64,000 nucleotides of DNA from Minisyncoccota bacterium (lineage in GTDB: Bacteria; Patescibacteriota; Minisyncoccia; Minisyncoccales; RBG-13-42-11): contig JBAZFF010000001.1 of the NCBI GenBank assembly GCA_041653495.1, forward strand, positions 4,987-68,986, read 5' to 3'. Below the pieces are notes generated by a model. The model saw only the letters and a program-made list of their open reading frames with translations. It had not been told where the DNA came from and made no database searches. Shown here one piece after another: positions 10,094-27,504 of the stretch (its first letter is position 1; every line of letters starts with the position of its first letter). The position numbers were made by a program, and so were the translations under genes.

Positions 10094-10097
10094 ATTT

Positions 10098-12329: not shown

Positions 12330-12332
12330 ATT

Positions 12333-14057
12333 TTATTTAAAAATCTCACGATATACTTTCAAAATAACTTCGGGTATAGCACAAAGCGTGACTCGACTGC
12401 GCACATCCATAAACTGCTTCTCGTGCGGATCATCGCCCAAAGAAAACACATAGACATTAAAATGGCCCTTGATTTTCTTTATTGCTTTTTTGAAATCATC
12501 GATAGCTTCTTCATAAAATACGATACCGAGATATTTATCGCTATTCTTGAAAATCTTAAAATCGCTCTCGTCCTGAATTAACTCAAAAGCACTCTCTTTA
12601 ATACAGAGCATCTCAGTCGATTCATTAACCAGCTTGCGCTTATTGCGGTCCGTCGGTTCGGCTTCTACAAAATCGCAGGTGTAATACTTTAAGTTTCCTC
12701 CCAAGCCCTTAACCTTTTCTCCTTTCGTGCCCTTATATCCTTCAATGGCTTTATTCAATCGCGGATAACAAATATCTGAAGCAATCTTTAATCCACTACC
12801 ATTATTATCTTCATTGTTTGTACACAGGATGAATCGTCTCTTTCCACCATCTTCTTTATTTAATTCAAGTAATGCATGTCCAGTAGTCCCTGAGCCCGCA
12901 AAAAAATCCAATATAGTTATATCGTTGGGCTTATTCGTTATCTGAATAAGATATTTAATTAAATTTACAGGCTTCGAATAATTAAAATCTATTCCCATTT
13001 CGCTCAACAAGTCAGCGCCACGTCTATTTATAAATTCATCAAGGAAATTTCTTGGTCTTTTTCCTTCTTCTTCTCTATCGCTAAGATAAGTTTTTGTATA
13101 AATATTCCATACAGATTTTTTTCCTTTATCGTCTAAAAGAGGTGAATTTTTTGCTTTCTTAAAAACAACCCGATCATTTTTAAAGTTTTCCAGAAATGTC
13201 TTTTCGGTCCATCGATAAACCTTTCCTTTCGGTGGTCGCGCCTTAGAGCCATCAGGACATATGATAAAATAGTTCTGATTCGGCCGAACATCCAAAGCGG
13301 CCTGATATAAAGATATCTCTCTATATTTTCCTCTCTTGTCTTCTCTATTAAAAAGCTTTACCCAGTCGTCGGTAACAATGTCTTTGAACTTACCTAATTG
13401 TTGGAGGTCTTTTGTATAGCACAAGAGATAATCAACTGATGGAGAGAATTGGGTTCCTTTATTACTGGCCGTTTTAGCTACCCTGGATATAACTTCCACA
13501 AGATTAAGCTCGCCAAATATCTCGTCACACATCATCTTGAGCTGCGCTAATTCATCATTACCAATACTTATAAACATAACACCGTCTGGCTTAAGAAGAT
13601 TTCTTGCAAGCTTTAACCTTTTTTCCATGAAATTAAGCCATTTACTGTGACGAAACGGATCTTCTTTGTCGACTCTTTTATCATTATAAATAAAATCATC
13701 ATTCCCAGTGTTGTACGGAGGATCGATGTAAATAAAATCAACCGCTTCATAATTGGTAAAATTTAAAACTGCAAGTGAATGGTAATTATCTCCCTCAATT
13801 AATAAATTTACGGGTTTATTTTGGTCATCATTTATTTCTTTACTTTTAGCCTCTTTTAAAACTGGGAATGGTCTACCCACCATTTCATTAGGGAACATTT
13901 CATTGGGAGTACGAGCATCAGGATTGATAAGAATATCGATCTTTTCTTCTGGGAGATCGCGATGCCAAACAAGCCCGTATTTTGTTTCCTTAATACGGCG
14001 CAACTCTTTAATGAGTTCCTCTTTGGACCAATTGTCGTAATTAATTTTTCTTGCCAT
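12333..14057 (-). CDS. mod: Type III R-M Mod subunit (beta-class N6-adenine DNA methyltransferase)
   Basis: IYIDPPYNTG (motif IV) precedes FFAGSGTTGHA (motif I), the beta-class order typical of Type III Mod. Confidence 0.85.
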   Translation of the reverse strand: MARKINYDNWSKEELIKELRRIKETKYGLVWHRDLPEEKIDILINPDARTPNEMFPNEMVGRPFPVLKEAKSKEINDDQNKPVNLLIEGDNYHSLAVLNFTNYEAVDFIYIDPPYNTGNDDFIYNDKRVDKEDPFRHSKWLNFMEKRLKLARNLLKPDGVMFISIGNDELAQLKMMCDEIFGELNLVEVISRVAKTASNKGTQFSPSVDYLLCYTKDLQQLGKFKDIVTDDWVKLFNREDKRGKYREISLYQAALDVRPNQNYFIICPDGSKARPPKGKVYRWTEKTFLENFKNDRVVFKKAKNSPLLDDKGKKSVWNIYTKTYLSDREEEGKRPRNFLDEFINRRGADLLSEMGIDFNYSKPVNLIKYLIQITNKPNDITILDFFAGSGTTGHALLELNKEDGGKRRFILCTNNEDNNGSGLKIASDICYPRLNKAIEGYKGTKGEKVKGLGGNLKYYTCDFVEAEPTDRNKRKLVNESTEMLCIKESAFELIQDESDFKIFKNSDKYLGIVFYEEAIDDFKKAIKKIKGHFNVYVFSLGDDPHEKQFMDVRSRVTLCAIPEVILKVYREIFK

Positions 14058-14276
14058 ATCTTTTATTATCTTTAAGATTGCTCGTCTTATCTAAAAAAGC
14101 ATTAAGGTCAGATTCTTTGATCCGCCAAACCCCAATCTTCGAATCTCTGAACTTACCGAGTTCAATCTTTATATAAATTTAACATTTCCAAGAAAGAAAA
14201 CAACCTTCTCGGGAAAGCCAATTTTGATGGCGGGAAAGTCGACCTATTTACGTTTAAATATTGAGGACTTTTCGTC

Positions 14277-14310
14277 TATATGTCGCACAAGGTAGATTGT
14301 GAGACAAATA
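14277..14310 (+). repeat. 34-bp palindromic core site TATATGTCGCACAA-GGTAGA-TTGTGAGACAAATA; candidate dif/att-type tyrosine-recombinase site
   Basis: Two 14-nt arms that are inverted repeats of each other (12/14) flank a 6-bp spacer. The left arm equals 985-998 and the right half is the array motif. Confidence 0.55.
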
Positions 14311-14338
14311 AAAAACCAGCCATTAGGCTGATTTCTTA
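14311..14338 (+). terminator. Hairpin CCAGCC-att-AGGCTG flanked by an A-run and a T-run
   Basis: Bidirectional terminator-like structure abutting the core site. Confidence 0.45.
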
Positions 14339-14373
14339 TCCTAAATAAATCTCTTATGACACTTGCTTAGGAA

Positions 14374-14412
14374 TGTTAGCGGGAAAATCTTATATAATCT
14401 TCCCGCTAATTG
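14374..14412 (-). terminator. Perfect 10-bp inverted repeat TTAGCGGGAA…TTCCCGCTAA downstream of 14428..14781
   Basis: Hairpin 16 nt after the stop of the minus-strand gene. Confidence 0.4.
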
Positions 14413-14427
14413 TGCAGTAATTCTAAT

Positions 14428-14781
14428 TTACCCAGGTGCTTTTGAAAGCCAATAACCTTGGGCGGGATTGACGGTGGCGACAGAACATTCGACCAGCGCC
14501 TGAGGGTAAAGTCTTTTTACGGCTTCCCCCACTCTTGTTGCGAGGCACTGACGAACTTCCGCCGTCCGCTCAGGTTTCTCGTACAGGGCGCTGATCTCGA
14601 CGATTATTTCGTCTCCGAGGCCGTACTGCATTAGGTCCGGCGGGAAGAGACACGTCATATCTTTTTCATCGCGAAGGCCCAACTCGGGCACCGATAGGAC
14701 GGCTCTTACGATTTCTTGATGAAGCTTATTAAAGTCAGCCTCATCTCCTTTTGGCAAACACCATACTTTAATTACTGGCAC
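14428..14781 (-). CDS. Tautomerase-superfamily-like protein (N-terminal MPVIKV); high-GC cassette gene
   Basis: Begins (GTG)M-P-V-I-K-V as in 4-OT/MSAD family proteins. AGGAGG RBS 9 nt upstream. GC is much higher than in neighbouring genes. Confidence 0.35.
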   Translation of the reverse strand: MPVIKVWCLPKGDEADFNKLHQEIVRAVLSVPELGLRDEKDMTCLFPPDLMQYGLGDEIIVEISALYEKPERTAEVRQCLATRVGEAVKRLYPQALVECSVATVNPAQGYWLSKAPG

Positions 14782-14784
14782 TTA

Positions 14785-14870
14785 TTCTTTCCTCCTTTAT
14801 TTTCGCTAACAAAACAATAACATATATTTATGGTATTGTCAACTGTAAGGTAGATCGTGAGACAAATAAA
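14785..14870 (-). promoter_or_regulatory. Cassette 5' module: motif copy R2 plus TTGACA-N17-TATTGT promoter plus RBS; about 85% identical to 22381..22462
   Basis: The minus strand reads TTGACAataccataaatatatgtTATTGT, then AGGAGG and the GTG start. A near-identical block lies upstream of the unrelated gene 21997..22356. Confidence 0.5.
14849..14868 (+). repeat. Array motif copy R2 (GGTAGATCGTGAGACAAATA)
   Basis: 19/20 match to the consensus, followed by hairpin GAGGCTTG…CAAGCC and TTTT (14872-14905). Confidence 0.7.
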
Positions 14871-14920
14871 AAGAGGCTTGCAGTAATTAACCACAAGCCC
14901 TTTTGAACTGTTTCCCTAAA

Positions 14921-16036
14921 TCACCGGACACCGAGGGTTGAGCCCAAGTATTCGAGATTTTTAGGTTCGATGATAACCTTTTTGTCGCTGCTCCGCTTGA
15001 TGAAGCCGGCCCGTAGAGCGACAAGGCCGAGACGTTCAGCGACCAAGCAAACATTTTTCACATCCCGTTGCGATACATAAAGAGCAAAACCCGCTCCCAT
15101 ATTCAGGTTGCCGTATGCTTCCCTGTCGTCCACCGGGCCGTGCTTCTGCAAAAATCCGAAAATAGGCTGTTGCCTCGGTAAACGCTTGATTACGTATGCG
15201 AAGGACTGAGGGGCGCGCATTAGTTTCCGCCATCCGTGTCCGGTTATATTCACCGCATAGTGAATATTTATACCGGAATTCATGCAGTCTTCCACGAGTC
15301 CGACGTAGATGTGTGTCGGGTCAAGAAGCGTCTCTCCGTATGTCCGTCCGTCATCAATCCGCGTAAGATATCCTTCGGGCAATATTTTTGCAATTTCCCG
15401 GGCCATTGTAAGGCCGTTTGCATGGATGCCGGAGCTTTCAATAAGAATAATCGCATCCCCATCCCGGATGTTTTTTGCAGAGATCAGCCTTTCTTTGGGC
15501 TTTACAAGACCCATCGCTGAACCGGAAAGTACAACGGCATACGGCACGACCACTCCCTTGAGAGTCGGCGTTTCGCCGCCACCCCATACGCACCGCGCTA
15601 GGTTGCAGGCCTTCTTCCATCCCTCGACTAAGTCGCGACACCGCTTCTCGTCTTTGAACCATTGGGAATCTCCGACGGCAAGATGCATCGCCACTGAAAG
15701 GGGCAGCGCGCCAAGCGTAATCATATCGTTAACGATCATTGCTACTGTACACTGCGCAATCTGGTCGTAATACGATTTGCCGGTACACCGGTACATCTCA
15801 TCTGCAACCAGATTCTTTGTTCCGAGCCCCTCCTCTACGTGGGCGAAATAGCTTTTCGCCGCTTGGATAAGATAGGCACTTTCTCCGCGGCTCGCCTCAA
15901 GTTCTTCGAACTCTCCGTTATTAAGGCGATCTATATTTGCCGCCGTTTCACGGCCGGCAATTTGTGCCATCCTCTTGAAAGGATCCATGGCGTCATAGTC
16001 GACGCCCACATCCGCATAGGTCATCCTTTTTTCCAT
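14921..16036 (-). CDS. AIR-synthase-related (PurM-like) protein; high-GC cassette gene
   Basis: N-terminal YADVGVDYD resembles PurM YKDAGVDIDAG; GLGTKNLVA…IAQCTVAMIVNDMITLGALPL resembles the PurM-family ATP-binding region. Confidence 0.55.
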   Translation of the reverse strand: MEKRMTYADVGVDYDAMDPFKRMAQIAGRETAANIDRLNNGEFEELEASRGESAYLIQAAKSYFAHVEEGLGTKNLVADEMYRCTGKSYYDQIAQCTVAMIVNDMITLGALPLSVAMHLAVGDSQWFKDEKRCRDLVEGWKKACNLARCVWGGGETPTLKGVVVPYAVVLSGSAMGLVKPKERLISAKNIRDGDAIILIESSGIHANGLTMAREIAKILPEGYLTRIDDGRTYGETLLDPTHIYVGLVEDCMNSGINIHYAVNITGHGWRKLMRAPQSFAYVIKRLPRQQPIFGFLQKHGPVDDREAYGNLNMGAGFALYVSQRDVKNVCLVAERLGLVALRAGFIKRSSDKKVIIEPKNLEYLGSTLGVR

Positions 16037-16123
16037 ATATTCCCTCCTGTCTTATATTATGAACTGTATGTCGATATTATAACTTTTTCTTAGAAAATCA
16101 AGCCTAGGATTATTCGGTCGGCT

Positions 16124-16143
16124 GGTAGATTGTGAGACATAAA
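16124..16143 (+). repeat. Array motif copy R3 (GGTAGATTGTGAGACATAAA)
   Basis: Followed by the GAAGCC…GGCTC hairpin. Confidence 0.7.
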
Positions 16144-16194
16144 GAAAAAGAAGCCATCAAGCGGCTCCTTGTAATTATTCAGACCAACTATTGA

Positions 16195-17250
16195 TTATCT
16201 CATAATATAAGCAGAAGAGGGACCCTTTCCAATCTGGGTGATTATGCCAATTTTTTTAAGCTGGCTTAGTTTTAACTGAACCGTCCTTTTGGGAGAATTA
16301 AGGATATCTACGGCATCTTTCACTGTAATCCTGCCAATCTGATCCAAAAAATCCAGCAATTTTAGTTGATCCTTGTCAAGGTATATTTTTGATTCAATGC
16401 CCTTGTTAATGTTTTTGAAAGACAAAGAAACGACTTGCGCCTTAACGCCGTCGATCTCTTCCTTGAATCCCCTGACGAAATATTCAAGCCAAGGCGTGAA
16501 GTCCTTTTTTCTTTCTTGATAGTTCTTGCCTGTGTTTATTGCCGCATAGTATTTCCCTCTGTCTTTGTTGTAATAGTCTTCCAGGGCAAACAATCTTCGG
16601 AAATTATATCCTCTCTGGTAGAGCACGAGCGTTGCTATAGCCCTGGCCGTCCTGCCGTTACCGTCCTGGAAAGGATGGATGGCCGCTACTTCCTGGTGAA
16701 CTATTCCGGCAGCAATGACAGGATTGATATTTTTGGCCTTACTCTCCTTTAGCCATTTTATTAGATCCTGGCAAAGACGAGGAACATCTTTAGCATCTGG
16801 ACCGGTATAAACGATTTCATCTGACAAACCGATCCTTTGGCGCACAACATATATCAAACCCCTGCGATAATGACCAGACTGATGTTCTGGTAAAGTCTTG
16901 TTAGTAACAAGCTCATGAATTTTCAACAAAACCCTTTCGGTAATCGGCTGTTCATCTTTGACGACTCTCTCTATGTATTTTAAAGCTTTAAGATAATTTT
17001 CAACTTCATAGATGTCGCGCGCTGGAGCATCTATTTTTTTACGGGCGACTATTGCTTCCACCTGTTTATAATCAAGGGCATTACCTTCTATTCCAGTAGA
17101 GCTGTGACTCATCCTGATTAACGCCTGGCGCCTCAATTTTATTTCATTTTTGGGCAAAAGCTTGGCACGATCGATAACCGCTCTTGATTCAACAATGGCG
17201 GTAAGCATCTCAACAATTTTACTCGTTATTTTATAGGAAGGATTAAACAT
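16195..17250 (-). CDS. Fic-family protein (AMPylase-type) with N-terminal inhibitory motif and C-terminal wHTH
   Basis: Fic motif IHPFQDGNGRTAR. The N-terminal STGIEGN matches the (S/T)xxxE(G/N) autoinhibitory helix of class II Fic. Confidence 0.85.
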   Translation of the reverse strand: MFNPSYKITSKIVEMLTAIVESRAVIDRAKLLPKNEIKLRRQALIRMSHSSTGIEGNALDYKQVEAIVARKKIDAPARDIYEVENYLKALKYIERVVKDEQPITERVLLKIHELVTNKTLPEHQSGHYRRGLIYVVRQRIGLSDEIVYTGPDAKDVPRLCQDLIKWLKESKAKNINPVIAAGIVHQEVAAIHPFQDGNGRTARAIATLVLYQRGYNFRRLFALEDYYNKDRGKYYAAINTGKNYQERKKDFTPWLEYFVRGFKEEIDGVKAQVVSLSFKNINKGIESKIYLDKDQLKLLDFLDQIGRITVKDAVDILNSPKRTVQLKLSQLKKIGIITQIGKGPSSAYIMR

Positions 17251-17280
17251 ATTCTATTTGTATTATAACCAATTAAAGAA

Positions 17281-17302
17281 AATCGCGCAATAATCGCGCA
17301 AA
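17281..17302 (+). promoter_or_regulatory. Tandem direct repeat AATCGCGCAA-t-AATCGCGCAA over the -35 region of the Fic promoter (candidate operator)
   Basis: Two exact 10-mers 1 nt apart, about 15-35 nt upstream of a TATAAT -10 on the minus strand at ~17262-17267. Confidence 0.35.
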
Positions 17303-17382
17303 ACTTTTAAAATAAGGTAAAAATAAGATTTAATTTCTCCTTGACAAATTATACGACGAAAATGATGCTTCGAGTCTTCGTT

Positions 17383-17402
17383 GGTAGATTGTGAGACAAA
17401 AT
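17383..17402 (+). repeat. Array motif copy R4 (GGTAGATTGTGAGACAAAAT)
   Basis: Followed by a GC-rich hairpin and TCTTT (17403-17432). Confidence 0.7.
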
Positions 17403-17449
17403 AAAAAGGGCCGTCCGTAGGCGACCCTCTTTAAACTAATCGTGTTTTA

Positions 17450-18106
17450 TCAAGCCGGCTGAAGAGAGCGTTTCTGGGGCTTAAAAAGCTCGTCCGAGAA
17501 AGACTTGTCGTTGTAAAAGACGTTCTTCCCGTAGCTTAGTAATTCATTCCCCTTCCAGGTCATAAAGAAGAACCACTGGGCGATATCTTTCCCATATTTG
17601 ATAGAGCCGCATAAGGTGAAAATCGGAACCTTCAGGGACTTATCATCCATGGTGTTGGCGCGGTAGAGGCTAAATTCCAGATTCTTGGTAATCTTTTCGT
17701 TGAAAACATCGGTGAGATTCGAAAAGACCTGGTCCGTGCGTTCGTCGCCGAATATCTTCTCGGGGCCGAGCGTTGACCCCTGCGCCAGAAACTTTGCCCT
17801 TTCCCTGATGAATTTCTTTGTAAAGAAGTTCTCTTCGAAAGAGCGGGCCCTAGTCACGAATCCGGGATTGAGAAGCACCATATCCTGGTATTTAGTTTCT
17901 TTGAGATTGATTACCCCGACGCGGCACAAATCATCCGGTTCGATGCCTAAGTCGCAGTCTATCGTGATCTCATCCATGAAACGCAGAAGATTGAGTGTTA
18001 CACGGTTGTGCAGGCCGATAGTCAGATGATCATCGTCGTTTATTAAGTCAACGACCGGGAAATCTCCCTTTCTTTCTGTTGATAAGACAACTATTCCTTT
18101 ATTCAA
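17450..18106 (-). CDS. Hypothetical protein (cassette cargo)
   Basis: 218-aa ORF with an AGGAGG RBS and a perfect 16-bp palindrome just upstream. Confidence 0.5.
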   Translation of the reverse strand: MNKGIVVLSTERKGDFPVVDLINDDDHLTIGLHNRVTLNLLRFMDEITIDCDLGIEPDDLCRVGVINLKETKYQDMVLLNPGFVTRARSFEENFFTKKFIRERAKFLAQGSTLGPEKIFGDERTDQVFSNLTDVFNEKITKNLEFSLYRANTMDDKSLKVPIFTLCGSIKYGKDIAQWFFFMTWKGNELLSYGKNVFYNDKSFSDELFKPQKRSLQPA

Positions 18107-18127
18107 AGATCTAACCTCCTAATTATT

Positions 18128-18143
18128 TCCCATTGCAATGGGA
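18128..18143 (+). promoter_or_regulatory. Perfect 16-bp palindrome TCCCATTGCAATGGGA immediately upstream of the RBS of 17450..18106
   Basis: Dyad-symmetric sequence read directly from the window; typical of a dimeric-repressor operator. Confidence 0.4.
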
Positions 18144-18192
18144 TTCTAAACTATAAAATAATTCAATCTCAAAGTCAATTCAGCTCCTCCTA

Positions 18193-18212
18193 GGTAGATT
18201 GTACGACTAGAA
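18193..18212 (+). repeat. Array motif copy R5 (degenerate: GGTAGATTGTACGACTAGAA)
   Basis: GGTAGATTGT is conserved and the rest has diverged. Confidence 0.5.
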
Positions 18213-18342
18213 TGACACGTAATGGCACACAACACACATTATTCGACATGTGTGTTTCAGAATATATTTCCCGATGTATAGACGAATACCCACGGCGTGA
18301 ATATTCCTTGGGTACTTAGTGCTTATTCTCAGCTAATAGAAT

Positions 18343-19098
18343 TTAAGAGAAATATGTCTCTATTTCCCTAGTTAAACGAGAAGAAAAATCTTTTGATATA
18401 GTTTGATGGCTTACTGGCAAAAATATTTTTAATTCTCTTTCTAAATTTCCTACTTCTGAAAGAGCATTCAATAATTTTTCCTTTAAACCAATCTCACTTC
18501 TAGGAATATAGCTCACTAGGCTTGGATTCTTTGAAATAAAATACAAATCAAAGAAATCTCTAGGTTTTTTTCTATAAAGTAAGGCTTCAATCTTCTCTTT
18601 TACTAAGATTCTCTCTGTTAAAAAAGTGACAACATATGAATCTGTAAATTCACTTTGTACAAGACTAGTGTTCGCTTCAACCTCACTAGGATTACGAAAT
18701 GAAATTTCTAATCTTATTTCCGAATCGAAATCTAACATCTTTAATTTAATAACAGTTAAATATCCTCCCGTAGTTTCCCCCTGTGTCCCATCATTAACTT
18801 TTTTCTCAGTTTGTATCCCCTCTTCTTCCATATTTCCCAAAGTTTCGTCTATTAATCTATTAATCTCTGAGTAATCTGGTCCATGATCACCAATCGCGGA
18901 AAAATCAAGATCTTCTGAAAATCGAGGACTATGGAAGACAATCCTTAGAGCAGTACCTCCTTTAAAGAGGAACTTTTCCGAACCCTTTTTCTTATAAAAA
19001 TAAGATAAAAAAAGATGTTGACAGTATTCCCTGGCTATGTTCTCTTCTATTGTCTGATATCTCGTGGCAAGTTGGCTTATGAAATGACGTGAAATCAT
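18343..19098 (-). CDS. AbiEii-family nucleotidyltransferase toxin (type IV TA / abortive infection)
   Basis: FKGGTALRIVFHSPRFSEDLDF matches the DUF1814/AbiEii GG…R.SeDlD motif. Confidence 0.7.
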   Translation of the reverse strand: MISRHFISQLATRYQTIEENIAREYCQHLFLSYFYKKKGSEKFLFKGGTALRIVFHSPRFSEDLDFSAIGDHGPDYSEINRLIDETLGNMEEEGIQTEKKVNDGTQGETTGGYLTVIKLKMLDFDSEIRLEISFRNPSEVEANTSLVQSEFTDSYVVTFLTERILVKEKIEALLYRKKPRDFFDLYFISKNPSLVSYIPRSEIGLKEKLLNALSEVGNLERELKIFLPVSHQTISKDFSSRLTREIETYFS

Positions 19099-19724
19099 AT
19101 TGGTTTATAAATTATTTTTATTAAATTAATGAATGATTTATTCTTCCTAAGATTATTTTTAAAATATTTAACATAATATCCTAATTTGTTGTCATCTATT
19201 TTACTCAAATCTACTCTATCGTTTAAATCTTTTTTCCGTAGAGACAAAAGATAAATATAATCCAACAAAGCCTTTTCTCTTTCTGCCATTAAAACATTAA
19301 CGCCCCTCATTTTTTGTGGTTGATACCCAAAAAAGAGACTCTTTTTTATTTTTATATAGTCAAAAAATGATCTTTGTACGGAGAAACTTTTTGTTTGTTT
19401 TGTAGTCGCAGAAATTATACTATAAACATTTTCTGGAATTATCCCATAAAAAGAGAGGGCTGTTTCAAATGATATATAAGATGGCTTGTACAATTTATTA
19501 GCAATCTCAAATTTGTTAGGAAGATTATGTGCAAAAATATAGAGACCTTTTTTTATTTTCAAAAAATAAGAATTTTGTTTTTTTGAGTTACGCGAAAGGA
19601 ACGCTCTCGCTGTAGAGGATTTTATCTCTAAAAATTTAGAAAATTCAGATACAGTAAAAATCCTGAGCCCAGTATTATTCAACTTTCTCTCGACTAAGCT
19701 CAAGCTTAATCTTTCATTAGTCAT
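19095..19724 (-). CDS. AbiEi-family antitoxin / transcriptional regulator
   Basis: Located directly upstream of the AbiEii gene with a 4-nt overlap; SFETALSFYGIIPE matches the AbiEi_4 signature. Confidence 0.55.
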   Translation of the reverse strand: MTNERLSLSLVERKLNNTGLRIFTVSEFSKFLEIKSSTARAFLSRNSKKQNSYFLKIKKGLYIFAHNLPNKFEIANKLYKPSYISFETALSFYGIIPENVYSIISATTKQTKSFSVQRSFFDYIKIKKSLFFGYQPQKMRGVNVLMAEREKALLDYIYLLSLRKKDLNDRVDLSKIDDNKLGYYVKYFKNNLRKNKSFINLIKIIYKPI

Positions 19725-19931
19725 GATATTTCAATATAACATAATACTACGATACCAACAATGTTTTAAACAAGTTTATCTTCGTGACAAATATGTCACT
19801 TAGAACAACCCATTATTGGATTATCGACTCATTTAGCATAACATTCTAGGTGGGAAAAGTCAATATAACCGGCCCGTAAATCATGTTCAATTAAAAAAGG
19901 GCCGTTTTCGCACAAATGCGAGCGTACCCCA

Positions 19932-20417
19932 CTAATCATTGGACCACATCCACGGATAGCCGAATCTTTGCTTTTCTACAACATTCTTTCTGAAAGCGAG
20001 CAGCTCATCCGCCGTCAGCTCCTCTTGGGCCAGCTCTATTTCATCCAGAACAGCAACCGTATGGGCCCTCTGCCAACGAATCCAAGCCTTAATACCTTCT
20101 TCGTCTATGATCACTCTGCCTATTACGTTGGCCAAATGGATTCCTTCTGAAACCATTTGAAACAACTCTTCATCGGTTTTTCTTTTATACAGAATAGATT
20201 CTCGATGTTCGTGATAGAGCGAGTAACGCAAGAAAGGATCTGTTTTGGACAGGAATATCATTACCTTTCCGGTCTTTTTATGCCGGATAAAGAGGCCTCC
20301 TCCGTATATCATGAAAGACGGAAGCCCTAAGTAAGATATCTCTTTTCCGCGTATTACTTCTTTCTTTTTGGGCAATAAGTTCCACAGAAGATGCAAAACC
20401 TTATCGGGCAAATTCAC
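19932..20417 (-). CDS. Hypothetical protein
   Basis: 161-aa ORF with no recognisable motif. Confidence 0.45.
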   Translation of the reverse strand: MNLPDKVLHLLWNLLPKKKEVIRGKEISYLGLPSFMIYGGGLFIRHKKTGKVMIFLSKTDPFLRYSLYHEHRESILYKRKTDEELFQMVSEGIHLANVIGRVIIDEEGIKAWIRWQRAHTVAVLDEIELAQEELTADELLAFRKNVVEKQRFGYPWMWSND

Positions 20418-20507
20418 GGTAAGTCCCCCCTCTCTTTAGAATATAAAGGAAGAATAATCTCCTTGCTGATATTAAATTATATAATTTCAGGAAAAAGTCA
20501 ACCCACT

Positions 20508-20527
20508 GGTAGATTGTGAGACATAAA
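20508..20527 (+). repeat. Array motif copy R6 (GGTAGATTGTGAGACATAAA)
   Basis: Followed by an A-run, hairpin and TTTT (20528-20566). Confidence 0.7.
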
Positions 20528-20841
20528 ATAAAAAAGGCTGCCGAAGCAACCTTTTAAGAGCAAAGAGTGAACTCCCCTAATAGAAGCGGTATCAAAGGAG
20601 TTCGCTCTACAACCGATTGGCCTTTAAAGCAGCCGTGCATGATAAAGAGATTCCTGGCGCATTCTTCACTTGTCCATCTTATCTCAAGTGTTTCCGCTTC
20701 CCTACCCAAGGGATAGACAAATTCAGAAAAACCAGCTTTCTCAACAAAATATTAACTGATTACTCAAAAGAATACAACAAAAAGGTAGGTCTCATGCTAT
20801 TACACATCAACAGATATCAAACAGGGGTGCTCCTCCGGTAC

Positions 20842-20861
20842 GGTAGATTATGAGGCATAAA
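20842..20861 (+). repeat. Array motif copy R7 (GGTAGATTATGAGGCATAAA)
   Basis: Variant carrying the compensated small palindrome TTATG-agg-CATAA, followed by hairpin AACCA…TGGTT and TTTCTT. Confidence 0.65.
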
Positions 20862-20941
20862 AAACCAACCATTTGGTTAATTTCTTAATTATCAATAACT
20901 AAACCATATCGTAAGAACTTGAAAAATGTTAAATTAAAAAT

Positions 20942-21832
20942 ATGAAATACAAAACAATATTATCGTTATTCTTTGTTGTGTTTTTTGTTTTTCTCTCTCC
21001 TAACCCAAGCACTGTTCAGGCATTAACCCAGGAAGAAAAAGAGAGACTAATACAACAGATTGAAATTCTCCAACAAGAAGTCACGACTTTGAAAAATCTA
21101 ATCTCAAACCTTCAATTACGACAGGAAATTACTGCCGAGTCGTATTTAGCAGTAGATCTTTCTAATAACTTAGTACTCCTGAGCAAAAACTCTGATGAGA
21201 TTCACTCCATAGCCTCTGTCACTAAGCTTATGACTGCCGTAATCGCTATTGAGAACATTGATTTGAACCAGACAATAACATTGACGGATGAAATGCTGAA
21301 TCCCCTGGGCAGCAGCCCGACTCTCTTTTCAGGATTAACCATAAGCGCGGAAGACCTTCTTAAGGCCTGCCTTATTCAATCAACTAATGACGCGGCTGAA
21401 GCCCTGTCTTACTTTATGAACGACGGAGAATTTTTAGCTTTAATGAACCAAAAGACAACGGCACTCGGAATGACCAATACCGTTTTTTACGACGTTCACG
21501 GGTTAAACCCTGAGAATCGTTCTAATGTAGTTGACATTGCCAAACTCGTATCTTACGTTTATAAAAACCATCAAGAGGTTCTAGACATTACAAAGAATAA
21601 CGACTTTTGGCTTCCAGACAAGACAGGAAGACTTCTTAAATTCAAGAATTCAAACGGATTTTATTATCTTCCCACATTTATCGGAGGAAAGACTGGATAC
21701 TTGGTGGAAGCAAAACAGGCCCTGGCTTCTGTATTTGAATTGAACGGAAATCCTACCGCCATCGTCGTACTCTATTCAGACAACCGCCAAGCCGATACTT
21801 TTGCAATAATCAGAAAACTGGAAGAAGAATAG
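20942..21832 (+). CDS. Serine-type D-Ala-D-Ala carboxypeptidase (PBP5/S11-like) with a signal peptide
   Basis: SVTK (SxxK), STN (SxN-like) and GKTGY (KTG) motifs, plus an N-terminal hydrophobic signal. Confidence 0.6.
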   Translation: MKYKTILSLFFVVFFVFLSPNPSTVQALTQEEKERLIQQIEILQQEVTTLKNLISNLQLRQEITAESYLAVDLSNNLVLLSKNSDEIHSIASVTKLMTAVIAIENIDLNQTITLTDEMLNPLGSSPTLFSGLTISAEDLLKACLIQSTNDAAEALSYFMNDGEFLALMNQKTTALGMTNTVFYDVHGLNPENRSNVVDIAKLVSYVYKNHQEVLDITKNNDFWLPDKTGRLLKFKNSNGFYYLPTFIGGKTGYLVEAKQALASVFELNGNPTAIVVLYSDNRQADTFAIIRKLEEE

Positions 21833-21954
21833 CTTTACAGAAAAACAAATCAATGAAGTGCCTGTATATCATAAACGTCTCACCGGATAGTAAAATTTCA
21901 TTTCAAAAAATTGGCTTCCCTGACTGGATGATGTTAGAACCTGTTTAAAATAAA

Positions 21955-21985
21955 AAAACACCGTTATTGGCACGGTGTCACACCT
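21955..21985 (+). terminator. Bidirectional terminator CACCGT-tattggc-ACGGTG between convergent genes
   Basis: A-run, hairpin and T-rich tract. Confidence 0.5.
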
Positions 21986-21996
21986 TATTGCTTTTA

Positions 21997-22356
21997 TTAT
22001 TTTATTTTCTTGATGAATCCCTCGAAGCCTCCATAAAGATTTAAAATTTCTCTCTTTTCTCTCTCTTGTTTTACAAGGGGTTCAAGTTTAACCCAGAGAT
22101 CTTTCCACCATTGAGGTGTCCAGGTTAAAAAGATTGTTTTGGAATCGAGAATACCCGCAGTCACATTGGTTCCTACCCGATTACCAACATAAATATATTC
22201 GAGAAAAAGCTGTTTTCTTTGAGGGTCATCTCCAATATAGGAGAGTATATCTTCTTTGCCAAGTTTCGCCATCTCAGTCCTAGCGCCCTTTATCGTTAGA
22301 CTATCCATCTGTTGACTGACAAAGGCCAATGTTGCTATTTTCTTGTTAGAGAACAT
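21997..22356 (-). CDS. Hypothetical protein
   Basis: 119-aa ORF driven by the duplicated promoter module at 22381-22462. Confidence 0.45.
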   Translation of the reverse strand: MFSNKKIATLAFVSQQMDSLTIKGARTEMAKLGKEDILSYIGDDPQRKQLFLEYIYVGNRVGTNVTAGILDSKTIFLTWTPQWWKDLWVKLEPLVKQEREKREILNLYGGFEGFIKKIK

Positions 22357-22442
22357 TATCGCTCCTCCTTTTATTTACTTACCATTCTTCCCTTTTTCTC
22401 TAATAAAACAATACCACATTTCTATGGCATTGTCAACCGTAA

Positions 22443-22462
22443 GGTAGATTATGCGTCATAAC
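22443..22462 (+). repeat. Array motif copy R8 (GGTAGATTATGCGTCATAAC)
   Basis: Variant with the palindrome TTATG-cgt-CATAA. The upstream 60 nt are near-identical to 14806-14848. Confidence 0.65.
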
Positions 22463-22723
22463 ATACAGATATCCTCCAAAGCCCCTTAATTGGGGTTTTG
22501 GTTTCTTTTAAATCGTCTATAATACATTAAAGGTCTCTAAACTGAATAATTTATTAAAATATGCCCAAGGACCTAAAAGCAGAAAAACCTAGCGGAATAG
22601 GACTATTTGTTGTTTTGGTAATAGTAGTAGTTTTAGCTTTAATCTTAAGATAGCAAATACATAAGAGCTTTCTCTCTGTTTAAGCATAGAGGGGCCGCTA
22701 AGCTTAATTTCGTATAGTAACAT

Positions 22724-22996
22724 ATGTTACTATACGAATATATGGATAAAGAATACTATTCAACAATAGAAGCGGCCAATATATTACGGGTAAGTCGTAA
22801 GACGGTTTTTAAGTGGGCCCAAAGCGGAAAAATCAAAGCCACTAAGGTCGGGCGAAATTATATCATTCCCCACTCTGTCGTTCTGGAAAAACTTGGAAAG
22901 AGCATAGGCAAAGACAAAAAGGCTAATATAGAAAAAGCCATTGACAAGGCCATGAGGGAATATGAAAAAACATTTAGAATGCTCGGAAAAAAATGA
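22724..22996 (+). CDS. Excisionase/MerR-superfamily HTH DNA-binding protein (putative antitoxin/regulator)
   Basis: YYSTIEAANILRVSRKTVFKWAQSGKIKATKVGRNYIIP matches the HTH_17 pattern. Its stop overlaps the doc ATG (ATGA). Confidence 0.7.
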   Translation: MLLYEYMDKEYYSTIEAANILRVSRKTVFKWAQSGKIKATKVGRNYIIPHSVVLEKLGKSIGKDKKANIEKAIDKAMREYEKTFRMLGKK

Positions 22997-23423
22997 GACC
23001 CAAATCAATAAGCATTGCCGAAATTGAATATACTTCATTCCGTTTAGCGGAAAAGTTTATGACTTAGGATGAGCCGATTCCCAACTTCGGATCCAGATTT
23101 CCAAATATTCTGGAAAGCTGTCTAAACCAACCGTTTGTAAGTTTTGCTAAAAAGATTTATATCGCGGGCTCGTCGGGAAGGCTAGCATCTTATTCTGTTT
23201 GATGATCAAAAATCATCCGTTCCAGAACGGAAACAAGCGCATAGCCGTAATGACTCTCTTTTATTTCTTATACAAAAATGGCAAGTGGCTTAATATCAAT
23301 AATACTGATTTATATAATTTCTCGGTTGGGGTTGCTGAAAGCAAAACAACTTCTCGGGAGAAAACAACCAATCATATCGGCCACTTGATTAAAAAGCATC
23401 TAATCAATTCTCCTAAGTTATAA
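22993..23423 (+). pseudogene. doc: doc (death-on-curing / Fic-fold toxin) disrupted by an in-frame TAG at 23065 and a frameshift near 23170-23200
   Basis: Three in-frame pieces: MRPKSISIAEIEYTSFRLAEKFMT*; DEPIPNFGSRFPNILESCLNQPF…AKKIYIAGSSGRLASYSV* (Doc N-terminal LLESaLarP-like); and, after a frameshift, …ASILFCLMIKNHPFQNGNKRIAVM (Doc motif HxFxNGNKR). Confidence 0.55.
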
Positions 23424-23442
23424 TCTTTATTTCTGTCTAGAC

Positions 23443-23460
23443 AGATTGTGAGAAAAAATA
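23443..23460 (+). repeat. Array motif copy R9 (partial: AGATTGTGAGAAAAAATA)
   Basis: Lacks the GGT. Followed by a perfect hairpin AAAAAGCG-N14-CGCTTTTT (23460-23489). Confidence 0.55.
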
Positions 23461-23500
23461 AAAAGCGGTGAAAATATTCATCGCTTTTTATCCTCTTATA

Positions 23501-24094
23501 TTATAGATATTTGATTTGTTTCTTAATCGCCTTGAATAAGTCGGAAACTATCTTTGATATATTCGCCAAATTAATCCCTACGTTGTTTAGTACGCTTTGG
23601 GGCGCCACGCTTATATTATACGTTATAGCATATGCGGTTTTCGGCTCATCCCCGACGACGGGGATCATCTTTGTCTCTACATTCATTGAGGAAGCAGAGT
23701 TATTAGTGAATATAAGGTAGATAACGCCGTCAGTAGCCATTCTTCTGCCGGGTTCCCCGCAGGCGAAATCCTCTCCCGTAGCAGCGTCTTTTATGGCAAG
23801 CCCGTCCTGGCAGGTTACTCTAAAGTCGAGAAAATCGGCATTTTTAACTTCCCAATTGAATTTCACATCTCCTTCATACAGAGAATCGGTCTTTGAATAT
23901 CCGCTTATCCAAAATTTAGGCTTTGCCACCGGGGTGGTCGGAAGCGGTTCTGCAAGACAAGCTCCGTTGCTGCAGCCGTTTGGGCATTCATAGCCTATTG
24001 AAGTCAGATTCCCTTCCTCATTACAATAAACTTCGTTTAGTTGGCGATTCGTCAGGCTATTGGAACAGCAATCGTTTGCAATACTATAGCCCAA
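23501..24094 (-). CDS. Hypothetical Cys-rich protein (possibly secreted)
   Basis: 197 aa with an N-terminal CC…C…C…C cluster. Last module before obg. Confidence 0.4.
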   Translation of the reverse strand: MGYSIANDCCSNSLTNRQLNEVYCNEEGNLTSIGYECPNGCSNGACLAEPLPTTPVAKPKFWISGYSKTDSLYEGDVKFNWEVKNADFLDFRVTCQDGLAIKDAATGEDFACGEPGRRMATDGVIYLIFTNNSASSMNVETKMIPVVGDEPKTAYAITYNISVAPQSVLNNVGINLANISKIVSDLFKAIKKQIKYL

Positions 24095-24101
24095 ACTGGC
24101 A

Positions 24102-25073
24102 TCAAACGCTTTCTTTCTGCTTTATTATTTCTCTTAACACTTCTTCCACCTTCTTTAAGCTCTTTTCGTCTATTATGGAAACGGGTAGCACTTTCTTCCC
24201 CGTCTTTTCCAAGAGAGCCACTTTCTTTTCAATGTCTTTCTCAGGAATCAAGTCTGCCTTGGCTAAAAGAATGTATTCGGGCTTTAATAAGAGTTCTTTA
24301 TTATGGGTCTCAAGCTCTTTTCTGATAACTTTATAATCTTCCAGGGGATCTGCAGAGTCGGCCGAGATAAAATGAAAGATGGTCTTGGTCCTTTCAATGT
24401 GCCTCAAAAACTTAATACCCAAACCCTTGCCCAAGGAAGCTCCCTCGATAAGCCCGGGGATGTCAGCTAGAATCAGCCCGTAATAAGACCCCAAATTGGG
24501 ATCCAGAGTAGTAAAAGGATAATTAGCCACTTTGCTGTTGGCCTTGGTAAGCTCGTTCAGTAAGCTGGATTTCCCGACATTCGGAAAACCGACGAATCCT
24601 ACATCGGCTATCATCTTTAATTCTAATCTCAGTTCGTATTCCTCCCCGAAACCGCCTTCTTTGAATTCCTGCGGACTCGTATTGGTGGAAGACCTGAATT
24701 TGAAGTTTCCCCTGCCGCCGTTGCCTCCCTTGGCCGCCAGCAATCTCTGCCCCACGGAAATTATTTCCGAATCTTCCTTCAAGGACAAATTATGGATGAC
24801 CGTTCCCACGGGTATTCTCAATATTAGGTCCCTTCCGTCTGCTCCGTCATGATTCTTCCCTTTGCCGTTCTCTCCGTCTTCAGCGGACAGCTCTTTCTTG
24901 TAAAGGAATTGGTTTAAAGTGCTTAAGTCGGAAACTCCTTCAAAATAAATATCCCCTCCTTTGCCTCCGTCTCCGCCGGTGGCTCCGAGAGACATTTTAA
25001 CCTTGCTGAAAGCCACGGCTCCCCTGCCGCCGTTCCCGGACTTTACTTTGATTTTAATGTCGTCAACTATCAT
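24102..25073 (-). CDS. obg: GTPase Obg/CgtA
   Basis: Gly-rich N-terminal Obg fold (GNGGRGAVAF, GGDGGKGGD) and GFPNVGKSSLLN G1 motif. Confidence 0.9.
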   Translation of the reverse strand: MIVDDIKIKVKSGNGGRGAVAFSKVKMSLGATGGDGGKGGDIYFEGVSDLSTLNQFLYKKELSAEDGENGKGKNHDGADGRDLILRIPVGTVIHNLSLKEDSEIISVGQRLLAAKGGNGGRGNFKFRSSTNTSPQEFKEGGFGEEYELRLELKMIADVGFVGFPNVGKSSLLNELTKANSKVANYPFTTLDPNLGSYYGLILADIPGLIEGASLGKGLGIKFLRHIERTKTIFHFISADSADPLEDYKVIRKELETHNKELLLKPEYILLAKADLIPEKDIEKKVALLEKTGKKVLPVSIIDEKSLKKVEEVLREIIKQKESV

Positions 25074-26134: not shown

Positions 26135-26279
26135 AAGAACCTCCTTCTAACTGCCTTAAATCTATAACTAATTAATAAAAAATCAAGAGAGTGTCAATCC
26201 TAAAGTTTCCGCTCATTCAGCAATTCCCAAACAAATAAAAAGGCCGTTTTCGTAGAACGGCCTCGCTTTGAAATTGCAC

Positions 26280-26897
26280 TTACAGCGGTGATCCTATTAA
26301 AGCCTCCACCTTTGGAAGCACTGGCCGCAAATCGCAGAATGATACTCTTAACGACGAGTAGCCATTTATCAGTTGATAAGCAATGTACCTGCCGTCGCAG
26401 AGTTCCGATAATCCGCAATATCCCATAAATTCTTCCCATTCCCTTTGGTCTATCAATGAAACCCCGTAGAAATGGAAAGACCTTCCCGAGGAAAGAATGG
26501 CTCCTCTGTATCCCTTGTGCTTGAAGAAATATATTGCATCAGCCAGAAGCTTTTCTCTGTCCTCTTTCTGAGCCAGATCCATCATCGGGATGTGAAGTAT
26601 TCTATTTTTCTCAACGCGGACTTCAGACATTATAGCCAGGACCGTCCCCGGTTCCAGATGGTCTATTATGTGAAGAATCTGACTAGCTGAGATAACATCT
26701 TTTCTCCTCATCTGAATGATTCTCCCCTTGGTCTCCTTGGGATTATCGTTGCGGAGTAGACGCGTGAGAGATTGCCCTTCGGGCAACTCGATCACGTTTT
26801 CCTTGGGCGTATAGACATAGAAGCTCAAGGCCTGGATGGCAGTGTTCTTTTCCACTATTTCAGCTATCACGTTAATGATGTCCATCCCTACTTCCAT
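26280..26897 (-). CDS. Hypothetical protein
   Basis: 205-aa ORF. Confidence 0.4.
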   Translation of the reverse strand: MEVGMDIINVIAEIVEKNTAIQALSFYVYTPKENVIELPEGQSLTRLLRNDNPKETKGRIIQMRRKDVISASQILHIIDHLEPGTVLAIMSEVRVEKNRILHIPMMDLAQKEDREKLLADAIYFFKHKGYRGAILSSGRSFHFYGVSLIDQREWEEFMGYCGLSELCDGRYIAYQLINGYSSLRVSFCDLRPVLPKVEALIGSPL

Positions 26898-26901
26898 TGA
26901 A

Positions 26902-27504
26902 TTATTCCTCCCTTATTTCTTTCTTCTTTACTCCTTGGCTCCTTACCGTTTTCCGGAAGGATTCCAACAGATCTCTTGAAGCTTCCAGGCTGAGGGGCGG
27001 CAACCCCTCAATAAATCTTTCAAAGATGTTCATCCAGAAAAGTTCGGATGCTTTTCCCCAGGTCATTATCTCGAAGTGCGCATCGTAATTGTGCCAAGCA
27101 GCCCTGCATTTTAAACAAAGGCAGGTCTTTGACGCCTCTTCCTTCGTCTTTGGCTGCCTGATAGCGAATTCGGCTTTCCCCCCGCATTTTATACAAGGAA
27201 GATTATAAGAAGCTATCTTCTTATCTGGCGTAAAGTCAGAAGCCTCACACGGTCCTTCAGCTTTAGCTTTTATCTTTTGGGCCTGCGAGAGGATTTTTTG
27301 CACCCAGTCGCTAGGAATCAAATTCTTCTTAAGGGCTTGATCAAGGGTATATTTATGACCCCGGGGGCAATGGAATATAACTGATTCCAAGCTCACAATC
27401 TCACTGTTTGTGTTCACGTAAGACTTAAAGCTGGCTATAGGCCATGTTTCTCCCTTTATACACTTCATATTCATTTCTATAGTCATATCTTCCTCCTGAG
27501 ACAT
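26902..27504 (-). CDS. Hypothetical Cys-rich zinc-ribbon protein
   Basis: Several CxxC pairs (CPRGH, CIKCGG, CLCLKC). Confidence 0.4.
   Translation of the reverse strand: MSQEEDMTIEMNMKCIKGETWPIASFKSYVNTNSEIVSLESVIFHCPRGHKYTLDQALKKNLIPSDWVQKILSQAQKIKAKAEGPCEASDFTPDKKIASYNLPCIKCGGKAEFAIRQPKTKEEASKTCLCLKCRAAWHNYDAHFEIMTWGKASELFWMNIFERFIEGLPPLSLEASRDLLESFRKTVRSQGVKKKEIREE

Follow-up and report, generated by a model that had tools for sequence, protein, structure and literature searches.

A chromosomal array of small gene modules bounded by dif-like half-sites, and its probable link to a Xer recombinase, in a bacterium of the Candidate Phyla Radiation

Introduction

How does a small bacterial chromosome come to carry a row of unrelated gene modules, each set off from the next by the same short motif in the same orientation? 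The question is raised by a 64,000-nt stretch of DNA from a Minisyncoccota bacterium (assembly GCA_041653495.1, contig JBAZFF010000001.1, positions 4,987 to 68,986), hereafter the window. A first-pass annotation had described nine copies of a motif in this stretch and proposed that they bound an integron-like or dif-module cassette array, served by the tyrosine recombinase gene at the left edge of the window (xer). The analysis reported here leads us to read the locus as a chromosomal array of small circularisable modules that would have accumulated through Xer-dependent, site-specific recombination at a dif-like site. We put the probability of this reading at about 0.6.

To our knowledge, the mobile genetics of the Candidate Phyla Radiation (CPR) is almost unknown. 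In other bacteria, several kinds of integrative mobile elements exploiting Xer (IMEX) have been recognised, among them CTXphi, TLCphi and VGJphi of Vibrio, the gonococcal genetic island and LME-1 of Legionella. The exploitation of Xer by such integrase-less elements is established (PMC9765430, PMC4246890), as are the dif modules (PMC6449649, PMC13141974), and the single-recombinase Xer system of Legionella and Coxiella was itself found by way of a dif-mimicking element (PMC9765430). Full-text searches of the literature found no description of arrays like the present one, or of a dif/Xer system, in Patescibacteria.

Results

Nine co-oriented sites share a sharp edge

To characterize the motif, the window was searched with the 20-mer GGTAGATTGTGAGACAWAAA, allowing up to three mismatches. 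Matches were obtained at positions 14291, 14849, 16124, 17383, 20508 and 20842, all on the + strand, whereas 100 shuffles gave none. Three further copies are weaker, if recognisable, and lie at 18193 (five mismatches), 22443 (four) and 23443 (five; the true register is 23440-23460). A profile derived from 27 copies in several genomes returned exactly nine matches in the window, on one strand and between 14,289 and 23,464. Its only other matches were to the opposite arm, which is present twice (985-998 and 14277-14290), and the remaining 54 kb of the window, intergenic terminators included, contain no further copy of the motif. All nine copies listed in the first-pass annotation were thereby recovered. 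Nine same-strand copies of a site of about 26 nt in the interval 14,277-23,460 compare with zero expected by chance.

Nearly all genes of the window lie on the - strand. Read in this direction, a T-tract followed by the 11-nt arm ATGTCTCACAA and the 6-nt spacer TCTACC closes each module. Every copy of the motif adjoins a hairpin and T-tract, the hairpin sequence being different each time, as had been seen before. Since the T-tract enters the motif on the - strand, these hairpins must be assigned to intrinsic terminators of the - strand genes and not, as initially thought, to a feature of the + strand.

Thirty sites from six genomes (the window and the loci L001, L002, L008, L071 and L073; loci from other genomes and contigs are cited by L numbers) were aligned to define the limits of conservation. 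Information content stays at about 1-2 bits from the T-tract through the 11-nt arm to the end of the 6-nt spacer, and is about 0.3 bits at the base directly past it. In the 11 nt beyond, agreement with the opposite arm (3.1 matches out of 11) is at chance level. Conservation thus ends right after the spacer, in a sharp edge of the kind left by a crossover point.

Other origins of the motif were considered and rejected. The segment GGTAGATTGTGA can be read as a C-terminal 'GRL*' and, on the - strand, as 'MSHNLP...' (an open reading frame, ORF, called in L001); a coding origin is nevertheless ruled out, as the copies do not keep a common frame, the reading is interrupted by an in-frame stop in L002 and the position of the motif is between terminator and promoter. 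Descent from a tRNA or tmRNA attachment site was discarded because the only tRNA of the window is at 55.3 kb and none lies near the arrays. Nor does the motif belong to a known RNA family, Rfam giving no matches in the array or around xer.

A complete dif-like site ends the array

At the end of the array nearest xer, the motif forms part of the 34-bp site that the first-pass annotation had singled out, TATATGTCGCACAA-GGTAGA-TTGTGAGACAAATA, whose arms are complementary at 12 of 14 positions (site C; Table 1). This is the last site on the gene strand and the only one in the window to have a second inverted arm, which makes it an 11-6-11 dif-like palindrome. The array of L008 likewise terminates in a full site (at 8045; aaATGTCGCACAA-GGTAGA-TTGTGAGACAT), and in these two arrays full palindromes occur at one end only. 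A related form of site C is found in L012 as a full palindrome 6 kb from xer. Judged by sequence, one 11-6-11 core accompanied by a series of hybrid sites with a common crossover edge has the signature of tyrosine-recombinase core sites. The most degenerate sites of the window (22443 and 23440) are the ones farthest from the full site, which fits a scheme where the newest insertion is at the full site.

The xer gene is the only tyrosine recombinase gene in the 64 kb. Its product belongs to the Pfam Phage_integrase family and among NCBIfam models scores best with XerD, XerC and XerA, each below the equivalog cut-off; the nearest solved structure is that of XerD (1a0p). The integron-integrase model TIGR02249 reaches 91 bits against a cut-off of 265, aligning only residues 234-306, and the match to IntI4 (2a3v) is restricted to residues 238-301. 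Identity with P0001 is 100%, and with the best 119 other proteins of 7,889 matches (E <= 1e-40) it is 75-92%; homologues named in the matches listed come from Nealsonbacteria, Wildermuthbacteria, Pacebacteria and other Parcubacteria metagenome-assembled genomes (MAGs). These comparisons lead us to class the enzyme as a plain Xer-type recombinase and not as IntI, that is, as the variant which the first-pass annotation had said would be unusual.

What ties this gene to the array is the arm itself. The exact 14-mer TATATGTCGCACAA is present twice in the window, once as the left arm of site C (14277-14290) and once at 985-998, 40 nt past the xer stop codon and behind its terminator. In the latter position it is followed by TATTAA and lacks a second arm (half-site B; Table 1). 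The sequence ATGTCGCACAATATTA is found at the matching post-xer position in L012 and L013, and one gene farther downstream in L011 and L014, so that the arm lies near xer in four relatives as well; indeed, each genome examined has arm-bearing sites linked to xer. The earlier suggestion that this recombinase serves the array is thus strengthened. The arms resemble the E. coli dif sequence at 6/11 and 7/11 positions.

Table 1. Positions of the recombinase gene, the sites and the modules in the window.
Feature	Position	Strand	Basis or remark
Xer-type tyrosine recombinase	2..943	+	C-terminal 313 aa of a 318-aa protein; window begins 5 codons into the gene
Terminator hairpin of xer, AAAAACCACTAGCTCCCCTAGTGGTTT	947..973	+	direct reading; hairpin kept in L012, L013
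Half-site B: arm TATATGTCGCACAA + TATTAA, no second arm	985..1004	+	14-mer identical to 14277-14290
Full dif-like site C: ATGTCGCACAA arm, GGTAGA spacer, inverted TTGTGAGACAA arm	14277..14310	+	array end nearest xer
Module 1: 117-aa gene (14428-14781), TTGACA-17-TATTGT promoter, terminator	14311..14848	-	ORF and signal reading
Array site 2 (spacer + arm)	14849..14868	+	motif and profile match, 30-site alignment
Module 2: PurM-like AIR-synthase-related (AIRS) protein (14921-16036), GC ~52%	14869..16123	-	family match
Array site 3	16124..16143	+	motif and profile match
Module 3: Fic / SoFic-like protein (16195-17250)	16144..17382	-	family match
Array site 4	17383..17402	+	motif and profile match
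Module 4: 218-aa protein, function unassigned (17450-18106)	17403..18192	-	homologue in L073/L074
Array site 5, weaker: GGTAGATTGTACGACTAGAA	18193..18212	+	profile match; identical variant at L008 4395
Module 5: AbiEii (18343-19098), AbiEi (19095-19724), 161-aa ORF (19932-20417)	18213..20507	-	GC ~30% over AbiE
Array site 6	20508..20527	+	motif and profile match
Module 6: 314 bp, no convincing ORF; candidate structured RNA	20528..20841	-	comparison with L008
Array site 7	20842..20861	+	motif and profile match
Module 7: S11 DD-carboxypeptidase (20942-21832, +), DUF4760 protein (21997-22356, -)	20862..22442	mixed	family matches
Array site 8, weaker	22443..22462	+	profile match
Module 8: 30-aa hydrophobic ORF (22561-22653), excisionase-family HTH (22724-22996), truncated Doc (23199-23423)	22463..23439	+	
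Array site 9, degenerate: GACAGA-TTGTGAGAAAA	23440..23460	+	profile match, direct reading
197-aa ORF (23501-24094), abuts obg, variable region	23461..24101	-	no family match
obg, conserved array flank	24102..25073	-	family match

Content between the sites varies in related genomes

In public genomes the exact 20-mer is rare, with matches at two loci, both from CPR. In a metagenome scan, another array (L008) came up together with a short fragment (L006); the other matches were two contigs that are the same as the window and four tandem repeats that are unrelated. The MAG locus L001/L070, whose Obg protein is 80% identical to that of the window, has obg directly followed by eight co-oriented sites in 6.6 kb, and no copy of the motif in the preceding 8.8 kb of L070. 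L008 contains seven co-oriented sites, most of them bounding single co-oriented genes (TspO, a nucleoside hydrolase and a TPR protein among the products); its interval 2509-4395 comprises three units and two decayed sites. Co-orientation is complete in all three genomes (9/9, 9/9 and 7/7), and the three arrays have no cargo protein in common.

The comparison with a close strain, L069, locates the point of divergence. With an Obg 97% identical to the window's and flanks about 89% identical at the nucleotide level, L069 is colinear with the window until homology ends exactly at the obg stop codon. Past this point L069 has a terminator, a site and a different gene; the window has the 197-aa ORF 7 nt from obg. 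The succession of obg and, at once, terminator and site is found in L001/L070, L069 and L071. As the first-pass annotation anticipated for an array of this kind, related genomes (L001/L070, L008, L069) carry other modules between conserved sites.

A gene flanked by sites can also be seen away from obg. In the Nealsonbacteria locus L002, a 618-aa gene lies between two sites, and the syntenic interval of the window (59.9-60.3 kb) measures 0.4 kb and has no site. The downstream site of L002 is 27 nt ahead of a housekeeping promoter conserved in L002 and in the window. As the window orthologue of this promoter works without the motif, the latter arrived with the inserted gene. The motif is therefore not confined to a single locus, as had been expected, L002 being a second one; the expectation does hold for the other 54 kb of the window and for the 8.8 kb of L070.

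Two modules of the window recur in other surroundings. Module 6 is found in L008 between different cassettes, its terminator kept with a compensatory change and followed by a decayed site. Module 4 encodes a 218-aa protein with a homologue (59% identity) in L073/L074, where the gene stands in a different context with terminator and site on both sides. The cassette in L073 splits segments that are contiguous in module 8 of the window (22702-22817 and 22496-22652). Contigs L070 and L012 break off exactly at a terminal array site, and L008 366 bp past its full site, as would be expected if assemblies break at strain-variable arrays.

Family scans of the module proteins of the window detected no integrase or recombinase. 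Neither the L008 cassettes scanned nor the called genes of L070 include a member of an integrase family, and no other recombinase was found in the array loci L001/L070, L008, L069, L071 and L073.

Separately, two partial sites 57 nt apart were noticed in L002 at 4749-4830 (CACAATCTACCAGCGTGGACTAAGAG... and GACAATCTACCGGTGTGGAGAAAGAT...); by their sequence they look like an 'empty' cassette or the scar of a cassette loss. In L072, two inverted 75-nt copies of a terminator followed by ATGTCTCACAA and CGCATC, at 16940-17023 (+) and 18407-18490 (-), surround a 364-aa gene. The inverted sites of this pair (17013/18417) are unlike the direct arrays, and an IS1595 transposase is 0.5 kb off.

Modules have their own predicted promoters and terminators

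On the - strand the layout of a module is promoter, one to three genes, intrinsic terminator and then the site, with sizes ranging between 0.3 and 2.3 kb (Table 1). GC content jumps from module to module, from about 52% to about 30%, in agreement with the abrupt changes in base composition noted earlier. The cargo described in the first-pass annotation was found again for the most part (PurM-like, Fic, AbiEi/AbiEii, HTH and DD-carboxypeptidase proteins, as well as Doc, which is truncated). The 'tautomerase-like' protein was not: it is the 117-aa product of module 1, for which no significant family match was obtained. The promoter of the DUF4760 gene of module 7 is of the same TTGACA-17-TATTGT form as that of module 1.

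Module 6 and L008 3160-3400 are 78% identical over about 210 nt, and the identity in the best amino acid frame is just 49%. A consensus fold of the segment 20528-20745 (- strand) contains 55 pairs, six of them with compensatory changes, as judged from two sequences only; Rfam has no match. The pattern makes this module a candidate structured RNA more than a gene.

Several similarities in the flanks of modules were recorded. The segment 14311-14371 (3' flank and terminator of module 1) is 85-88% identical to two terminator modules of L001, at 2025-2092 and 5006-5093, one of which is the 3' flank of obg. Modules 1 and 7, unrelated in cargo, have near-identical promoter modules (14782-14848 and 22357-22442), with the pattern CTTAC(A/G)GTTGACAAT(A/G)CCATA...TATTGTTTT. 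In several cassettes of L001, L002 and L006 the spacer is followed by some 60 conserved nt, AGTGTGGACTAAGAGCCTCCTTAATGA.... Such common flanks could represent accessory sequences or traces of the way in which cassettes are made.

In module 8, what is left of Doc is a 74-aa C-terminal fragment. The 30-aa hydrophobic ORF at 22561-22653 (+), MPKDLKAEKPSGIGLFVVLVIVVVLALILR, is present in L073 too, and a perfect 30-bp palindrome at 22709-22738, TTCGTATAGTAACATATGTTACTATACGAA, overlaps the start of the excisionase-family HTH gene.

xer lies at the replication terminus

The surroundings of xer were compared in L011, L012/L013, L014-L016 and L017/L018. The gene ends a run of + strand genes, formed by the mraY-murD-ftsW-murG cluster in L011, L012 and L017 and by other genes in L014. 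In L011, L012, L014-L016 and L017 the genes downstream of xer are convergent (- strand), and xer marks the point where GC skew turns from + to -. The window, with xer on the + strand at its left edge, has negative skew over the whole 64 kb. The coincidence of xer with the flip of GC skew and gene orientation in five related loci places it at the replication terminus, and we regard it from these comparisons as a core, terminus-located gene.

The relatives also contain a palindrome with the same arm upstream of xer, referred to here as site A. Its invariant 23-nt form is TCGCACAA-TGTAGG-T(A/T)AAGCGAC and its wider form (T/G)(G/A)(T/A)GTCGCACAA-TGTAGG-T(A/T)AAGCGAC (also written TCGCACAATGTAGGT(A/T)AAGCGAC). 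It occurs in L011 (9861-9890), L012 (~9290), L014 (9920-9947) and L017 (~9925), in each case between a consensus TTGACA-17-TATTAT promoter and the xer start. The distance to the start is 70-140 nt in L011, L014 and L017, and about 700 nt in L012, where a called 163-aa ORF intervenes. By analogy with the linkage of xerS to difSL and of xerH to difH (PMC2731167), site A is the best dif candidate for Parcubacteria, or alternatively an operator of xer.

The spacers of sites A and C (TGTAGG and GGTAGA) have the central GTAG in common and differ at both outer positions. A canonical dif at the array was rejected, in that neither GC skew nor gene orientation changes at 14.3 kb. The array occupies the terminus-proximal 14-24 kb of one replichore, and the better dif candidate is the one found upstream of xer in the relatives, which in this genome would fall outside the window. 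The true dimer-resolution site is probably this separate, paralogous palindrome; site C, at 14277, is more likely a secondary dif-like site than dif itself.

Site B consists of the arm followed by TATTA(A/T), and an inverted copy of it is found upstream of xer in L011 and L012. A 2.2-kb xer segment is thereby bounded by inward-facing inverted repeats: in L011 these are 9339-9365 and 11564-11590 (27 nt, 89% complementary), in L012 8780-8797 and 11001-11018 (18 nt, perfect), and in the window only the right copy (985-1004) is seen. The segment resembles the 'C module' of Acinetobacter, or a mobile xer/dif module.

A separate feature of this neighbourhood is a gene-free stretch between a Zip transporter gene and xer (L011 9400-9800, L012 8850-9250). 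Besides a second consensus promoter, it includes conserved blocks (CGGAAAGTTCTTTCATCA is one), and it may encode an unannotated RNA; Rfam and ARAGORN gave no match.

Xer-type sites occur in phage contigs

Scanning viral collections with 16-mers produced mostly chance matches in coding DNA, from which L052, L067 and L078 were retained as leads; plasmid and phage BLAST collections gave no matches. L078 (IMGVR_UViG_3300014204_000043) is a tailed-phage contig with genes for a terminase, a head protease, HNH endonucleases and an ImmA-like protease. In the gap between its packaging and regulatory genes, at 10391-10418, it carries the complete palindrome ATGTCGCACAA-TGTAGG-TTATGCGACAT, a full site A that differs by 1 nt from the L011 core. 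The match suggests that mobile elements of this clade mimic Xer sites, and the palindrome is possibly the dif-mimic attP of a temperate phage that exploits Xer in these hosts.

Complete sites of the form ATGTCGCACAA-TATTA(A/G)-TTTTACGAC(A/G)T were observed in two IMG/VR contigs, L067 (60-135) and L052 (70-110), about 100 nt from the locus start. L067, with its upper collar connector, lower collar and tail proteins, is a contig of a phi29-like phage, and in it an adjacent copy of AATGTCGCACAATGTAGG precedes the site. The site-bearing end of L052 is closely similar to that of L067.

Discussion

How the array might be built

We envisage that a free module circle, carrying arm, spacer and a degenerate arm, would recombine with a chromosomal partner, the full arm-spacer-arm site at 14277-14310. 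With the strands exchanged at the border between spacer and non-conserved arm, a full site would be restored at the xer-proximal end and a hybrid site, made of the spacer and one good arm, left behind the module. Repeated rounds would stack modules in one orientation with the newest beside the full site; hybrid sites would be poor substrates, so that modules, once inserted, would be fairly stable. The two outer spacer positions at which site A differs from the array sites would block recombination between both classes. The catalyst would most probably be the organism's own conserved Xer.

A number of points weigh against this scheme. A tyrosine recombinase requires two bound monomers per site, and the array sites have one good arm. 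The GC skew switches at xer and not at the array, whose position is therefore not, strictly speaking, that of dif; 13 kb, with at least one core gene (CYTH), separate the full site from xer. Every site is placed between a terminator and a promoter, leaving room for a transcriptional role. In the comparison with L073, the 'empty' state represented by the window has no site at all, and L071 has just two sites though many accessory-looking genes follow its obg. No excised circle, empty-site junction or within-population polymorphism was found, the same-sample contigs L005 and L007 being identical to the window. Finally, a second tyrosine recombinase may exist elsewhere in the genome.

This last point leads to the strongest competing explanation, an unlikely one in our view: sites and cassettes are real, the enzyme is another tyrosine recombinase encoded outside the window, and the likeness of the arms reflects common site ancestry. 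Only 64 kb of the genome are visible, the array is 13 kb from xer, and its spacer GGTAGA differs from the xer-adjacent TGTAGG and TATTAA; moreover, many bacteria have two Xer paralogues (PMC5357621). Against this stand the identity of the arm to the xer-adjacent arm over 14 nt, the constant association of xer with arm-bearing sites, and the failure to find a further recombinase in the window or in the array loci of the relatives.

Somewhat less likely again is the possibility that the motif is a protein-binding or transcription signal (an operator, an insulator or a termination enhancer) and that the variable content arose otherwise. Position speaks for it, in that an intrinsic terminator immediately precedes each copy and good -35/-10 pairs lie shortly downstream of several: by consensus matches, promoters directly follow sites 14849, 18193 and 22443, and terminators precede most sites. 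The palindrome next to xer, between a consensus promoter and the start of the gene, is operator-like, and in the phi29-like phage contigs copies of the arm lie upstream of the first gene. However, the distance from motif to -35 box varies between 4 and more than 40 nt, the L002 copy is near a housekeeping promoter whose window orthologue works without it, and intergenic terminators in the other 54 kb do without it too. A signal of this sort would also leave unexplained the edge of conservation exactly at the 6-nt spacer, the restriction of full 11-6-11 palindromes to array ends and the breaks of inter-strain homology at the sites.

It is improbable that the motif is a selfish repeat spreading to intergenic terminators in the manner of repetitive extragenic palindromic (REP) sequences or miniature inverted-repeat transposable elements (MITEs). 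The second locus in L002, the 75-nt inverted copies (terminator and arm) around a gene in L072 and the 40-80 nt of extra flank common to some copies would agree with such an origin. Strict clustering and co-orientation in three genomes would not, nor would a conserved core of only about 26 nt beside hairpins unrelated in sequence, with no terminal inverted repeats and no associated transposase. A classical integron, or a cluster of attC sites lacking an integron-integrase (CALIN), can practically be dismissed: small same-orientation cassettes with toxin-antitoxin and defence cargo near a tyrosine recombinase recall one, but the locus fails the defining tests for IntI (91 bits against 265, from the C-terminal 70 residues only), for attC (neither an R''-L''...L'-R' structure nor a GTTRRRY core in the 30-site alignment) and for promoterless cassettes. 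Of the dual label attached to the array in the first-pass annotation, the integron part is accordingly dropped and the Xer-type cassette array retained.

Comparison with known systems

Taken as a product of Xer recombination, the array most resembles IMEX in its presumed mechanism. Its modules lack an integrase and the host Xer would be the enzyme, the sites are direct dif-like repeats (one full and eight hybrid, the latter keeping the spacer and one arm), and the units are stacked in tandem next to the replication terminus. Unlike IMEX, the units are small and usually single-gene, have no replication, packaging or transfer functions and are neither phages nor islands; there are seven to nine of them per array. 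Also different is the attachment site, which is probably a secondary dif-like one 6-13 kb from the skew switch, and here catalysis by Xer is presumed.

The pdif modules of Acinetobacter Rep_3 plasmids are similar in carrying one to three accessory genes, including toxin-antitoxin genes, and Xer-type sites without mobility genes. Their content is shuffled between replicons, much as two cassettes recur here in other contexts, and the identity of the spacer appears to set which sites recombine (PMC13141974, PMC6449649). The inverted-site arrangements in the xer segment of L011 and L012 and at L072 17013/18417 are further likenesses. The pdif sites are complete (XerC-spacer-XerD) and alternate in C/D and D/C orientation (PMC13141974), whereas the sites described here are all direct and have one conserved arm. 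The present array is moreover chromosomal, near the terminus, accompanied by what looks like a single-Xer system and from the phylum Patescibacteria.

The closest functional analogy is with integrons. One full entry site at one end, co-oriented and mostly single-gene cassettes, hypervariable content among close relatives and a cargo enriched in toxin-antitoxin and defence genes are common to both. In contrast to integrons, there is no IntI and no folded attC, the conserved site being a double-stranded dif-type half-site; modules have their own promoters and terminators and no common Pc, and the recombinase is a core gene 13 kb away.

XerS/difSL of streptococci and XerH/difH of epsilon-proteobacteria also have xer linked to a dif-like terminus site (PMC2731167, PMC2965235). 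The corresponding arrangement, xer beside a dif-like palindrome at the GC-skew switch, is seen in L011, L014 and L017, and the window shows the downstream half-site only. Unlike XerS and XerH, the recombinase studied here scores best with the XerD, XerC and XerA models. We know of no cassette arrays in the streptococcal and epsilon-proteobacterial systems. In conclusion, the array would work like IMEX or dif modules, is organised like an integron and is a full member of none of these classes.

Implications

If these arrays are the work of Xer, CPR bacteria have turned a near-universal housekeeping recombinase to chromosomal cassette capture. The dif-module idea would then extend beyond the Acinetobacter plasmids, to which it has essentially been restricted so far, and apply to chromosomes in a distant phylum, where the form is directional and integron-like; and genomes of less than 1 Mb could turn over defence, toxin-antitoxin and metabolic genes without integrases or transposases. 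More tentatively, and with less confidence than we place in the array reading itself, we propose that Paceibacterota (CPR) possess a chromosomal gene-capture platform of this integron-like type, run by a single housekeeping Xer located at the terminus, in which a full dif-like site serves for entry and modules that keep a half-site are exchanged between genomes. It would constitute a second, independently evolved cassette system and a main route by which accessory and defence genes are replaced. The 34-bp site and the 318-aa protein form a concrete site-enzyme pair that can be tested. The comparisons also provide a first candidate dif/Xer module for Parcubacteria, along with a phage that apparently mimics its site.

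Other features of the region

The stretch between xer and the array includes a defence-type block (7118-14057 and 3009-5125). Genes in this interval encode a Type III methyltransferase and restriction helicase, a 991-aa Ppl/SMC-like ATPase and a CYTH - PDC-S07-like - HD - CYTH cluster. The possibility that the 13 kb from 985 to 14277 form one mobile island was rejected, since conservation of the first CYTH gene close to xer extends to L012 and L017.

On the other side of the array, a 1.47-kb insertion distinguishes the window (26188-27662) from the close strain L069. It encodes a protein with an AEP-like primase domain and a 200-aa ORF, begins just past a terminator and ends with a terminator of its own followed by TTTTTATTTGT..., which from its sequence is possibly a decayed site.

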